Assembly (NCBI RefSeq): GCF_034424155.1 | Contig: NZ_CP139992.1 | Location: 674,012-698,011 of the forward strand | DNA: 24,000 nt | Origin: Hafnia alvei | Lineage (GTDB): Bacteria > Pseudomonadota > Gammaproteobacteria > Enterobacterales > Enterobacteriaceae | Direction of reading: 5' to 3' | Shown: in pieces, positions 3,368-23,764 of the stretch | How positions within the stretch are numbered: position 1 is the stretch's first letter | Layout: every line of letters starts with the position of its first letter | Position numbers and translations under genes: made by a program | The notes under the pieces: model-generated | What the model was told of the DNA's origin: nothing | Seen by the model: only the letters and a program-made list of their open reading frames with translations | Databases searched by the model: none

Positions 3368-3498
3368 GTGTTATACCCTTCATACTTCAAGTTGCATGTG
3401 CGTTGGCTTTCCTCGCTCACCCTAGTCACTTACTCAAGTAAGCTCCTAGGGATTCACTGCGTTGCCGCCTTCCTGCAACTCGAATTATTGTGGGTATA
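3368..3498. repeat. ERIC (enterobacterial repetitive intergenic consensus / IRU) element, full length
   Basis: The element contains the ERIC hallmark core (cgctcaccctagtcacttactcaagtaagctcctagggattcac) and its flanks (acttcaagttgcatgtgcgttggc, gcgttgccgccttcctgcaac). The terminal inverted repeat is tataccc...gggtata. Confidence 0.8.
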
Positions 3499-3499
3499 G

Positions 3500-3527
3500 A
3501 AAAAAAGGGGCGGCTAAACCGCCCTAG
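3500..3527 (-). terminator. Terminator-like hairpin immediately after the uxaC stop, inside the uxaC-uxaB spacer
   Basis: The minus strand reads tagGGCGGtttagCCGCCccttttttt: a GC stem followed by a run of seven T. It lies 5 nt downstream of the uxaC stop. Confidence 0.55.
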
Positions 3528-7068: not shown

Positions 7069-7842
7069 ATGGAATTCACAGAACCCAGAAGACTGTACCA
7101 ACAGTTAGCCGCAGAGCTGAAACAGCGCGTCGAATCAGGCGTTTACCCTGTGGGTGAGAAACTGCCAGCCGAGCGTTATATCGCCGAAGAGATGAACGTG
7201 AGCCGCACCGTGGTTCGCGAGGCTATCATCATGCTGGAGGTTGAGGGCTATGTTGAGGTGCGTAAAGGTTCGGGCATCCATGTCATCAGCAATCAGCCAA
7301 AAACGCTGGTTCAGCCTAATCGCAATATTCAGTTTGCGAGCGCAGGGCCGTTTGAACTGCTGCAAGCACGCCAGCTGATTGAAAGTAATATTGCCGAGTT
7401 TGCGGCAACTCAGGTCACCAAGCAGGATATTGTGGCGCTGATGGAAATTCAGGAACATGCGCGTCAGGAAGATCGTTTCCGTGATTCTGAATGGGATTTG
7501 AAATTTCACGTACAGGTCGCTTTGGCCACGCAAAACTCAGCCATGGCTACGATTGTGGAGCAGATGTGGAGCCAGCGTATTCATAATCCATATTGGCTAA
7601 AACTCCATGAACATATCGACGATGTGTCGATCGAAAGCTGGTGTGAAGACCACGACAAGATCCTCAAAGCGTTGATGCGTAAAGATCCCTACGGCGCGAA
7701 AGTGGCGATGTGGCAACATTTGGAAAATACGAAGCAAATGCTTTTCCAAGCGACCACCGATGACTTCGAGTTTAACGTCGATCGCTATCTGTTTGCCGAA
7801 AACCCCGTGGTGCATTTGGACGGCGTAACCAACGTCAAATAA
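7069..7842 (+). CDS. exuR: Hexuronate regulon transcriptional repressor, GntR/FadR family
   Basis: The 257-aa ORF begins [18 protein letters not shown]. It also contains [29 protein letters not shown] and [13 protein letters not shown], matching my recollection of E. coli ExuR. Confidence 0.95.
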
Positions 7843-14091: not shown

Positions 14092-14337
14092 AAAAAGCCC
14101 TGCAAAAGCAGTAACACCTTTCACTTAAGTGTGATTTTAGGGGAAGTACACCGATGGGGTCGTAGCAGCTTTAGCTGCCGACAACTTTGCTTGGAGCAAA
14201 GTTGAACAACGCTTTAGCGTTGGCCCTCTGGGAGGAACACAGGGATGTGTTCCTTAACCGCCCCGCGGTGTGCTAGCCCCGTGTATCTCGATCTCTTAAA
14301 CGAACGGCGTTATGCACAAGCAGGGCTTTTTGATTTC
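14092..14337 (+). repeat. Structured intergenic element 'copy B': outer inverted repeat plus a closed four-hairpin core (14140-14280) carrying GGA loops; candidate CsrA-binding RNA module
   Basis: The outer inverted repeat is aaaaagccctgc (14093-14104) and gcagggcttttt (14319-14330). A closing helix of about 16-18 bp pairs 14140-14162 with 14258-14280. Four hairpins sit inside it: 14165-14178, 14182-14204 (loop UUGGA), 14207-14222, and 14234-14253 (ggaACACAGGGAUGUguucc). Function is unknown. Confidence 0.6.
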
Positions 14338-17961: not shown

Positions 17962-18040
17962 TTCAGTTTTTGTCTAACTGTTTTTCGCCGCGGCGGTTTC
18001 GTCGCGGTGATACTTATTGTTTTATTTAAATTATTTGTTC

Positions 18041-18120
18041 GATACCCAAAATGATTGACGTTGCATCAAGGCGGCAAACATAGCCAACGTAGCGGCAACT
18101 TCAAGCAGGAAGGGGCGGGG
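18041..18120. repeat. Short (internally deleted) ERIC-like element in the deoC-deoA spacer
   Basis: gatacccaaaatgattgacgttgcatcaaggcggcaa matches the reverse complement of the right end of the ERIC at 3368-3498 (tatacccacaataattcgagttgcaggaaggcggcaa). agccaacgtagcggcaacttcaagcaggaagg matches the other end (agccaacgcacatgcaacttgaagtatgaagg). The central core is missing. Confidence 0.5.
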
Positions 18121-21700: not shown

Positions 21701-21723
21701 TAGCGGATAGCTGGAATACGTTT

Positions 21724-21750
21724 AAAGGCTCCTGAATAGGGGCCTTTTTT
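21724..21750 (+). terminator. Intrinsic terminator of the deo operon
   Basis: The sequence is aaAGGCTCCtgaataGGGGCCTttttt: a 7-bp stem with one G-U pair, followed by a T-run. Confidence 0.8.
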
Positions 21751-21755
21751 GTATT

Positions 21756-22005
21756 CGGTGATGGTGTAAGGTTTTGTTCGCCTCTCGTTTATGTGGCGAT
21801 GGTGATAGGTTTCGTTCGCCTATCCGCTGCTGTATTCACATACAAACTGGGTAGAAGGCGACCGATGAGGGGCGCCAGCGCGCGCCCCTTCAATCCTCGC
21901 GCTTTTATCCGAGACGCCATCTCCGCTACGGTTTGGTATCGCCCATCCAGGGCGCCCCAAACTCCGCCGGTACATCCCTGTACCGGCGGCTCTCCCAACC
22001 AAGAC
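21756..22005 (-). repeat. Structured GC-rich element 'arm L'; GGA-loop hairpins read on the minus strand; candidate CsrA-binding sRNA module
   Basis: Arm L is collinear with the reverse complement of arm R (22099-22292). Shared blocks are aggtttcgt.cgcc, gccagcgcgc, ctcgcgctttt, cggttt and atccctg..ggcggctc. On the minus strand the hairpins are ccgccgGUACAGGGAUGUaccggcgg (21989-21964) and CGCCCuGGAuGGGCG (21954-21940). Arm L also contains a 38/39-bp tandem duplication at 21757-21833. Confidence 0.6.
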
Positions 22006-22050
22006 TTAAACAATTAAAAGAAAAATAGAGAGATAAAATAAAAAGATAAG

Positions 22051-22077
22051 AAGACAAAAATGTCTTTTGTCTTTTTT
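22051..22077 (+). terminator. Small AT-rich hairpin plus T-run in the core between the two arms
   Basis: The sequence is AAGACAaaaaTGTCTTttgtctttttt. The stem is weak at 6 bp. It could insulate the two arms or act as a terminator, and the reverse strand forms a similar hairpin. Confidence 0.35.
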
Positions 22078-22098
22078 ATGTTTAAAGAGTGCATTTTA

Positions 22099-22292
22099 GA
22101 GCCGCCAGCAGGGATGCTGGTGGCAGGTTGAGGGCGTACAGGATGTGCGCTCCGAAACCGGTCGGGCAAACGACTCGGTAAAAAGCGCGAGAGTGAAGAG
22201 GTTGCGCGCTGGCAACCTCTTCTCGGACGCCTACATCAGCGGTTTCATGGAAACATAAAAGCTAACCGGCGTACGAAACCTTTCACTGTTCT
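22099..22292 (+). repeat. Structured GC-rich element 'arm R'; GGA-loop hairpins read on the plus strand; candidate CsrA-binding sRNA module
   Basis: The plus-strand hairpins are GCCGCCAGCagggatGCTGGTGGC (22101-22124, one G-U pair), GCGUACaggauGUGCGC (22134-22150, one G-U pair) and GAAGAGGTTGCgcgctgGCAACCTCTTC (22195-22222). The arm is followed by the bidirectional terminator at about 22306-22340. Confidence 0.6.
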
Positions 22293-22295
22293 AAT

Positions 22296-22340
22296 ATAAA
22301 TACGAACAAGGCGACACACTGGCCGCCTTGTTTGTATTTG
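22296..22340 (-). terminator. Bidirectional intrinsic terminator downstream of galP
   Basis: The stem is ACAAGGCG (22306-22313) with CGCCTTGT (22324-22331). T-rich tracts follow on both strands: tttgtatttg on plus and ttcgtatttatatt on minus. Confidence 0.7.
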
Positions 22341-22357
22341 TGTTACATCAATTTAAA

Positions 22358-23764
22358 TTACTTAGACCCAATCTTACGTAGTGGTTTGCCCTGCATCAGA
22401 TTACGTTCAATGTGTTCCAGAGAGATATTCTTAGTCTCAGGGATCAGCGCTAACGTAATGAAGATGAAGATAACGTTCAGACCGGCATAGACCCAGAAGG
22501 TATGTGCGCTACCCAGAGAGTTCAGCATGGTCAGGAAGGTTGCCCCGACGATCATGTTGGCAATCCAGTTGGTGGCGGTTGAACAGGTGATACCAAAATC
22601 ACGGCCTTTCAGCGGCTGAATTTCAGAACACAGCACCCAAATCAGTGGACCGGCGCTCATGGCAAAACCGACGATGAAGATTAGCAGCATGATAACGGCA
22701 AAGTACTGAGCAAACACGGAGCTGATACCGATGTTCATCATGGTACCTAAGGTGCCCATACCTAAAGCCATCACGATAAAACCGAGAATCAAGGTTGGCT
22801 TACGACCCCAGCGGTCAACTAAACCGATGGCGATAAAGGTGGCTAATACGTTCACCAGACCCACGATAACCGTGCCCCACATCTGCTGTGAGGTGCTGGC
22901 AAAGCCCGCTAAGTCGAAGATTTTTGGTGCGTAATACATAATGACGTTCATGCCGGTGAACTGCTGCATCACCTGTAACAACACGCCAAGATAAACGGCA
23001 CGGCGGAAGTTTTTATTGTTAATAAACAATGCCCAGCCGCTTTGTTTCACTTTCAGACTTTCACGAATTTCATCCAGTTCACTTTTGGCTTGTTCACTGG
23101 TATCACGCAGTTTTTCTAATACACGGCGGGCTTTTTCATCACTGCCGCGTGCGGCTAACCAGCGTGGGCTATCTGGCAGGAAGAACACACCTATCAATAG
23201 CAGAATAGCTGGAATAGTGATGACACCCAGCATCCAGCGCCATGCGCCGGTGTAGCTGAAAGCGGTGTCAGAAAGATAAGCGGCCAAAATACCGATGGTG
23301 ATCATCAACTGGTACATTGAAATCATACTGCCGCGAATCTTTTCTGGTGCAATTTCAGAAAGATAAATCGGAGCCGTATAAGATGCGATACCTACCGCTA
23401 ATCCCAGCAGTACGCGAGAAAGGATCAGAATTTCAACATCAGGTGCGAAGGCAGAAAACAGGGAGCCAACCACAAACAGGATTGCGCCAATCATCAAGCT
23501 GTATTTACGGCCAATGCGGAAGTTCAACCAGCCGCTACCCACTGCGCCGACTGCCGCACCAAACATCATAGAGCTCACAACCCATTCTTGTTGAGAGCTG
23601 GTGATTTGAAACGTCTCGCTGATAAATGGCAAAGCACCAGCGATAACACCAATATCCAGCCCGAACAGTAAGCCTGCCAGCGCAGCTAAAAAGCAGACAA
23701 AGAACGTTAGACTGGCATTTGAACGGGTCTTGCGAACCGATTGTGTACTCACGGTAGTACTCAT
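22358..23764 (-). CDS. galP: Galactose:H+ symporter (MFS sugar porter)
   Basis: The 468-aa ORF contains [29 protein letters not shown] and PESPRW-type motifs (LPDSPRW), and ends [20 protein letters not shown]. It is collinear and highly similar to my recollection of E. coli GalP. Confidence 0.93.

Follow-up and report, generated by a model that had tools for sequence, protein, structure and literature searches.

The DNA analysed here is a window of 24,000 nucleotides from Hafnia alvei (contig NZ_CP139992.1, positions 674,012 to 698,011 of the forward strand) that carries yjjI-yjjW and deoC-deoA-deoB-deoD, followed by a sugar-porter gene of the major facilitator superfamily on the opposite strand. 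The 657-bp spacer between the end of deoD (21700) and the sugar-porter gene (22358–23764, minus strand) holds a composite element, in which two arms of about 195 nt, L and R, roughly 70% identical to each other, lie head-to-head about a T-rich centre (Table 1). Terminator-like hairpins stand on both sides of it, at 21724–21747 (plus strand, deoD) and 22332–22305 (minus strand, sugar porter), and arm R lies 17 nt upstream of the second of these, which is bidirectional. No tRNA or tmRNA was found in the window. The composite is best read as one copy of a Hafnia-specific repeat composed of paired, paralogous L-type and R-type units, and these units may be RNA modules that bind CsrA.

A first-pass annotation, made from the letters alone, had noticed that hairpins in both arms and at a third place, copy B, combine constant GGA-bearing loops with variable, complementary stems, and had likened them to CsrA-binding sites of small RNAs (sRNAs). 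The sequences and coordinates that it quoted for arms L and R and for copy B are all correct in the window, as are the G-U pairs in both arm R hairpins and the fit of hairpin 1 (HP1) of arm L, GUACAGGGAUGU, to RUACARGGAUGU at 12 of 12 positions. The 24-kb window has 4 hairpins that combine a GGA loop with a stem of 9 or more pairs, compared with 0.58 expected (0 of 200 shuffles reach 4), and all four fall within the two regions that the annotation had named. Both arms fold better than their shuffles (z = −4.9 for arm R and −3.7 for arm L).

Table 1. Coordinates of the composite repeat and of copy B within the window
Feature	Positions	Strand	Remarks
Complete composite repeat	21756–22300		Left terminal blocks, arm L, T-rich centre, arm R; inverted repeat detected
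Terminal block GGCGAACGAAACCUAUCACC (21801–21820) and extra degenerate copy (21763–21782) of the 38-nt tandem unit	21763–21820	minus	
Arm L, L-type unit	21800–21997	minus	cmsearch 92.8 bits (model R1), 175.4 bits (model R2)
Arm L HP4, GGGGCGC-GCGCUG-GCGCCCC	21869–21888	minus	Family-wide, loop conserved and stem covarying
Arm L HP2, inner stem CGCCC-UGGAU-GGGCG (21940–21954), outer stem GUUUGG/CCAAAC	21931–21960	minus	
Arm L HP1, CCGCCGGUAC-AGGGAU-GUACCGGCGG	21964–21989	minus	Contains GUACAGGGAUGU
L-type 5' leader, GUUUAAGUCUUGGUUGGGAGAG	21990–22011	minus	Conserved
AT/T-rich centre	21998–22093		Small palindrome AAGACAAAAATGTCTT (22051–22066), then TTGTCTTTTTT and short tandem repeats
Arm R, R-type unit	22094–22288	plus	cmsearch 234.9 bits (R1), 211.3 bits (R2)
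Arm R HP1, GCCGCCAGC-AGGGAU-GCUGGUGGC	22101–22124	plus	One G-U pair
Arm R HP2, GGGCGUAC(A)-GGA-(U)GUGCGCUC	22132–22152	plus	Core 22134–22150; G-U and U-G pairs; CAGGAUG motif inside
Single-stranded AAAAGCGCGAG, then HP4, GAAGAGGUUGC-GCGCUG-GCAACCUCUUC	22181–22222	plus	AAAAGCGCGAG conserved
Closing helix UCGGACGCC/GGCGUACGA around variable HP5, then terminal block GGCGUACGAAACCUUUCACUG	22223–22288	plus	
Copy B, separate MITE-like element	14112–14312	plus	About 201 bp; distinct from the arms
Copy B, 18-bp terminal inverted repeats TAACACCTTTCACTTAAG and CTTAAACGAACGGCGTTA	14112–14129 and 14295–14312		
Copy B, inner hairpin CAACUUUGC-UUGGA-GCAAAGUUG	14182–14204	plus	
Copy B, inner hairpin GGAACAC-AGGGAU-GUGUUCC	14234–14253	plus	

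Hairpins, loops and the strand under selection

Units of the family fall into three types: L-type (such as arm L), R-type (such as arm R) and a longer X-type, which occupies the arm R position and has the same 3' domain and terminal block. From 5' to 3', all share one plan, consisting of a conserved leader, HP1, HP2 inside an outer stem, HP3, single-stranded AAAAGCGCGAG and HP4 with its loop GCGCUG, after which a near-invariant helix (UCGGNCGCC/GGCGNACGA) encloses the variable HP5 and a terminal block follows. Unit alignments were taken from a covariance model that was first built on R-type units (R1) and then rebuilt on all types (R2); a MAFFT alignment misplaced the 3' side of HP1 in L-type units. 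The main structure set comprises 147 distinct units, and its numbers should be read with three points in mind: the alignments are fitted to the model; the sequences are a mixture of paralogues and orthologues, so that alignment cells are not independent events; and the copies of one genome undergo concerted evolution.

Across this set, standard pairs fill 89.7% of the cells, compared with 34–45% when partners are slid by 1–3 columns, and the covariation score of 0.435 (0.116 for column shuffles) is reached by 0 of 500 shuffles. Changes on both sides occur at 37 of 50 pairs. HP1 is paired in 96.6% of cells with 3–5 pair types at 8 of its 9 pairs, and HP4 in 95.7% with all 11 pairs covarying; the closing helix UCGGNCGCC/GGCGNACGA is 99.6% paired and almost invariant, and hence contributes no covariation evidence. 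The loops behave differently from the stems that carry them. GGA is kept in 128 of 129 HP1 loops, on 21 different 5' stems, and in 125 of 127 HP2 loops, on 14 stems; the C-G pair that closes the HP1 loop is likewise kept in 128 of 129, whereas the other eight pairs vary. The loop forms are C[ANGGAN]G in HP1 and C[A/U-GGA-U]G in HP2. The first of these is the hairpin consensus of RsmE and CsrA; the CsrB repeat reads CAGGAUG, and the CsrA consensus from SELEX (systematic evolution of ligands by exponential enrichment) reads RUACARGGAUGU. HP1 and HP2 conform closely to these sequences. The two GGA motifs of a unit lie 29 nt apart, start to start, in arm L and arm R alike, a spacing within the range reportedly bridged by a CsrA dimer. 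The combination of constant loop and compensating stem that the first-pass annotation had seen is confirmed, and is much stronger with the related sequences than in the window; what the annotation made of it is partly supported.

Several measures distinguish the two strands. In the four best-supported helices (HP1, the outer stem P2o, HP2 and HP4), G-U outnumbers A-C by 60 to 5; the ratio is 21 to 30 in the less certain HP3 and HP5-flanking helices. Units hold 4–13 GGA and 0–3 TCC, and GGA exceeds TCC in every one of them, with 8–10 GGA in L-type, 12–13 in X-type and 4–5 in R-type units. Arm L has 8 GGA (5.3 expected) and no UCC, and arm R has 4 (4.7 expected) and one UCC; the earlier counts were right for arm R and too low for arm L (about 6) and for copy B (3–4, where there are 5). 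The GGA strand is also the better folded in 13 of 15 units, by a mean of 3.7 kcal/mol. The excesses of G-U pairs and of GGA and the folding difference therefore indicate selection on a single, GGA-bearing strand, the one that the annotation had pointed to, and hence on a single-stranded nucleic acid. The annotation had gone further and named RNA; the bias by itself does not distinguish RNA from single-stranded DNA (ssDNA).

Copies of the repeat across Hafnia

An exact-pattern scan of one genome per species gave true matches only in Hafnia paralvei ATCC 29927, in six stretches, where head-to-head pairs occur together with tandem arrays and with copies truncated by contig ends. The pattern is GC-rich, and about 65 of the 73 stretches in the scan were chance matches in unrelated high-GC genomes. 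Further loci were reached through translations of spurious open reading frames in arm L, whose only matches are Hafnia proteins. These frames were considered and rejected as small-protein or type I toxin genes: the arms' indels are not multiples of three and the frames overlap on both strands. With a stricter pattern for the 3' domain, 84 stretches were picked up among metagenome contigs but none among viral ones, and the covariance model recovered 42 units in isolate loci and 162 units in 80 metagenome stretches. Searches of 5,426 Escherichia coli genomes, of 72,556 plasmids and of 50,697 phage records gave no similar sequence. With at least 12 distinct loci among Hafnia isolates, and with one assembly alone contributing at least 31 units (in 16 stretches), the composite is one of many copies of a Hafnia-wide repeat.

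The arrangement of units is strikingly regular. The metagenome loci contain 59 clusters with units on both strands, and every one is head-to-head: 53 are simple pairs, the other 6 have an additional tandem unit, and none is tail-to-tail. Gaps between 5' ends are 65–198 nt. Terminal blocks, of the form GGCG-N-ACGAAACC-N-TTCAC followed by about 14 semi-conserved bases, lie outermost, so that the composite ends in inverted copies of this sequence, its terminal inverted repeats. The terminal 38 nt often occur in tandem (2 copies on the left side of the window composite, 3 in strains L001 and L006, and 3.5 in locus L086), and 3' domains too are tandemly duplicated. Within the L-type leader, a 16-base core, GTTTAAGT-N-TTGG-N-AG, shows conservation of at least 90% across 41 L-type units. 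Contig breaks fall inside repeat units. The breaks also suggested the rrn-operon sRNAs RrA/B/F, a candidate that was set aside, since the breaks lie within the repeats and the sequence is, by eye and not by alignment, unlike the E. coli rrnB T1–T2 spacer. On L068, a 7.9-kb H. paralvei contig with flgK-flgL and fliR to fliL, L-type units stand at both ends (1–117 and 7608–7804), both of them upstream of a flagellar operon (flgK and fliL) and running in its direction.

Between strains the arms hardly change, in contrast to the centre and flanks. The centre is T-rich, with a small AU-rich palindrome (AGACAAAA...TTTTGTCT) and microsatellites, and its length differs between strains at one locus; in L086 (3165–3349) it expands to the heptamer microsatellites (TTTTGTC)x9.7 and (TGGGTTT)x16. 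Hypervariable heptamers of this kind are a possible source of length or phase variation. The centres at the deoD locus (window 22012–22075, L001 and L006) contain AGACAAAG repeats that differ between strains. In 9 of 12 other sequences with an identical DeoD (L002–L010), the spacer between deoD and the sugar-porter gene is occupied by LprI-domain and DUF1176 genes and has no composite; the intergenic DNA of the composite-bearing window (21701–22357) and that of L002–L010 (3736–6400) are unrelated.

Copy number and arrangement of this kind raise the question of whether the family is a selfish recombining DNA repeat, akin to foldback elements, bacterial interspersed mosaic elements (BIMEs) or REPINs, the hairpins of which would matter in ssDNA during replication or mobilization by some enzyme and the CsrA-like loops of which would be incidental. 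We consider this unlikely, although the following observations fit it. The spacer between glpK and glpX is 160 bp long in Edwardsiella piscicida, with a normal terminator and no composite, and 590–730 bp long with an L/R composite in every Hafnia examined. At this locus the L subtypes differ among H. paralvei strains, in keeping with arm swaps. In the H. paralvei-like locus L091 (2192–2352) an internal deletion runs through the R arm from the HP1 loop to HP4, and that copy is therefore dispensable. In the metagenomic locus L092 (1–2500, compared with L089), an aminotransferase gene replaces glpK to the left of the glpX-linked composite, which suggests a rearrangement with its breakpoint at the repeat. 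The 3' ends of arms point toward gene 3' ends in 74 of 102 cases (a rough count that includes orthologous loci), as they do in repetitive extragenic palindromic (REP) and enterobacterial repetitive intergenic consensus (ERIC)-type repeats. Contig breaks inside units and the tandem duplication of terminal blocks and 3' domains fit as well, as does the failure to find a promoter or terminator in the units, and ssDNA, like RNA, tolerates wobble pairs (G-T).

Set against a selfish repeat, the search for target-site duplications in 53 composites was negative (longest shared flanking word 6.8 nt on average, compared with 6.7 nt in mismatched controls, a comparison that does not exclude duplications of 2–4 bp). 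No autonomous, longer version with a gene between the arms was seen among the head-to-head clusters, and no plasmid or phage copy was found. Above all, a selfish repeat offers no reason for two loops to sit at the exact CsrA/RsmE consensus, closing C-G included, in more than 98% of copies, or for the extra GGA hairpins of sister arms. Copies within one genome evolve in concert: R-type units have the HP1 stem GCCGCCAGC in window-like genomes but ACCGCCATC in H. paralvei, and this difference extends to the glpK-glpX locus that both share. We read the family as a recombining, homogenized repeat with turnover.

Orientation and conservation also bear on a different idea, that the unit is a structured RNA with a role unconnected to CsrA: a read-through element of 3' untranslated regions or between operons, serving to block exonucleases, to be cut by RNase III or to insulate neighbouring genes, with the 3' domain rather than the GGA loops as its working part. 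This we judge unlikely. The strongest sequence conservation of the family does lie in that domain, where it covers AAAAGCGCGAG, the GCGCUG loop of HP4 and the UCGGNCGCC/GGCGNACGA helix, and the composite stands in Hafnia where Edwardsiella has its glpK terminator. L arms face a gene 3' end in 35 of 42 cases, so that read-through would yield antisense L and then sense R or X, a transcript that could form a long imperfect hairpin; a sub-threshold Rfam match to a plant microRNA precursor reflects that possibility. Compensatory changes, however, preserve the local hairpins and not pairing between arms L and R, the near-invariance of GGA is left unexplained, and the AU-rich hairpin of the centre is not called as a terminator.

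A candidate CsrA-binding role

We favour the reading that the units are CsrA-binding RNA modules carried on a recombining repeat, and regard it as about evenly poised between right and wrong. It is preferred because two near-invariant CsrA-consensus loops on the structure-bearing strand are very hard to explain otherwise, and because an independent CsrA prediction has been published for the parent motif, TwoAYGGAY, the nearest Rfam family (PMC4333381). Under this reading the units would work at the RNA level, their transcripts either starting in the centre and running outward or arising through read-through of a neighbouring gene; HP1 and HP2 of each transcribed unit would bind CsrA with high affinity, and the 30 or more units of a genome may thereby exert a regulatory effect, titrating CsrA or recruiting it locally in the manner of the CsrB, CsrC and Rsm decoys. 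Recombination between copies keeps the family alike.

Several results weigh against it. The GGA density of R-type units is no higher than base composition predicts (4–5 observed, about 5 expected). Thirty or more copies per genome, tandem partial duplications, the deletion in L091 and the replacement of arms resemble a selfish repeat more than they do a regulator gene, and the most conserved sequence, which is in the 3' domain, is unexplained by a CsrA model. Signals for transcription are also wanting: sigma-70-like sites number none in the window copy, L085 and the L018 centre and one in the L030 tandem spacer, at no constant position, and the UvrY/GacA box (TGTAAG-N6-CTTACA) was not found with up to 3 mismatches in six loci. 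The units themselves lack an intrinsic terminator, the one next to arm R belonging to the sugar-porter gene, and the window composite lies beyond the convergent terminators of both neighbours, so that its transcription is not assured. The conserved core of the L-type leader is not convincing as a promoter, and matches by eye of the conserved leaders to sigma-54, sigma-32 and sigma-28 consensus sequences are unconvincing.

Copy B, which the first-pass annotation had treated as a third copy of the arms, proves to be a separate element. Its best local alignment to the arms scores 20, compared with 17 ± 2 for shuffles and 84 for arm L against arm R; the grouping is right as to the kind of hairpin and wrong as to homology. 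A shorter relative lies in the deoD terminator loop of one Hafnia strain (L004, 3777–3892), with an imperfect direct repeat (about 12 bp; TCCAGATTGGAG/TCCTGATGGGAG) on its two sides, and the site is empty in eight other strains with the same locus arrangement. Positions 14180–14226 of copy B are 87% identical to a 47-nt module in the X-type arm of L086 (3442–3486) that comprises a GGA-loop hairpin, GAACAACGC..GCGUUGGCCC, and the flanking hairpins covary between the two. Sub-threshold Rfam matches of this module are to AaHKsRNA22 (Aggregatibacter sRNA 22; 28.5 bits, cut-off 39.8) and RtT (13.1 bits). GGA-loop hairpin modules are thus carried on at least two unrelated repeat backbones in Hafnia. 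Elsewhere in the window, a 44-nt inverted repeat (80% complementary) has arms 14.5 kb apart, one between two minus-strand genes (3462–3505) and the other between deoC and deoA (18034–18077).

These results bear directly on the picture that the annotation had drawn, of a dedicated pair of CsrB/CsrC-like sRNA genes, closest in character to small Rsm/McaS-type RNAs, with copy B as a third paralogue. The arms do diverge from an AT-rich centre and display two loop GGA sites each. That picture is nevertheless contradicted, because the pair is one of dozens of copies and copy B is not homologous to the arms; nor was a sigma-70 promoter, a UvrY/GacA box, a terminator of its own or any Rfam match to CsrB or CsrC found at the locus, and we regard the idea as highly improbable.

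If the units do bind CsrA, the most far-reaching version is that decoys have been spread by the repeat, with at least 60 predicted high-affinity sites at 15 or more loci, and that CsrA control in Hafnia is partly set by repeat copy number and local transcription. We advance this version speculatively and think it rather unlikely. In it, the heptamer microsatellites of the centre could switch individual divergent pairs on and off; alternatively, the repeat might exploit CsrA binding for the stability of its own RNA. Binding of CsrA by the units would mean a decoy capacity distributed over dozens of repeat copies, an unusual organization for a Csr system. If the units do not bind CsrA, sites that look perfect are being kept for another reason, which matters for every motif-based prediction of CsrA targets.

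Comparison with known RNAs and repeats

In the window, no match attains the curated cut-off of its Rfam family. Like CsrB, CsrC and RsmX/Y/Z, the Hafnia units present GGA in the loops of short hairpins with arbitrary stems; their CAGGAUG and ACAGGGAUGU agree with the CsrB repeat and with the SELEX/RsmE consensus, and L-type and X-type units reach 8–13 GGA. They differ from these RNAs in that an R-type unit has two loop sites and only 2–3 further GGA, and in that a Hafnia genome has dozens of copies in place of one to a few genes. No match to the Rfam CsrB, CsrC, RsmX, RsmY or RsmZ models was found at the gathering cut-off in the window or in 22 Hafnia loci, and none of the sub-threshold matches over the arms is to these models.

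Among repeats, the family resembles REP, BIME, REPIN and ERIC-type elements in being intergenic and multi-copy, in its preference for gene 3' ends, in having two unit types in inverted pairs or tandem arrays and in copies that evolve in concert. It differs from them in that the unit is about 195 nt long, with five helices and sequence-specific loops, and is neither a palindrome of about 20–40 nt nor a single long hairpin. Compared with MITEs, the miniature transposable elements that end in inverted repeats, the composite has terminal inverted repeats without a target-site duplication, and, unlike the enterobacterial REP and ERIC sequences, its units have no similarity to E. coli genome sequence.

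The closest relative is TwoAYGGAY (RF01731), which Rfam places in clan CL00106, a clan that we take to be that of the Csr/Rsm RNAs. Both window arms fall short of its cut-off of 43 bits, arm R with 31.7 bits (E = 0.006) and arm L with 23.9, whereas nine X-type sister arms in other Hafnia loci pass the cut-off at 44.7–47.7 bits. The motif, an Rfam entry since 2010, was first reported that year in sequences from human gut metagenomes, from Clostridiales and from gamma-proteobacteria, its P1 stem being very large in many cases and very small in some (Weinberg et al., PMC2864571), and was proposed in 2014 as a CsrA-binding RNA on motif matching alone (PMC4333381). In the literature on TwoAYGGAY we found the CsrA role only as a prediction and no experimental follow-up.

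The likeness extends to two adjacent hairpins with A-Y/N-GGA-Y loops, to multi-copy, intergenic placement and to occurrence in gamma-proteobacteria. Both arms have the two loops (AGGGAU and AGGAU in arm R, AGGGAU and UGGAU in arm L). In HP1 of the arms the second loop position has G in place of Y, a feature shared with one Psychromonas sequence in the original alignment, and the Psychromonas copies in that alignment are also embedded in larger repeats. One probable difference is the large closing P1 stem, which in the window arms appears to be absent or about 5 pairs long: the minimum-free-energy fold of arm R is closed by the 5-pair UUAGA/UCUAA, and in the Rfam alignment most P1 columns are non-canonical. 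Two further features are absent from the family description, namely the conserved 3' domain of about 110 nt with its often-tandem terminal block and the obligatory head-to-head L/R order about a T-rich microsatellite centre. We regard the Hafnia units as a divergent, extended variant of TwoAYGGAY, in which the motif is known though uncharacterized, and the added 3' domain and the fixed divergent architecture are new. With about 200 sequences, very strong covariation and near-invariant CsrA-type loops in that architecture, the family provides a tractable enterobacterial test case for TwoAYGGAY.

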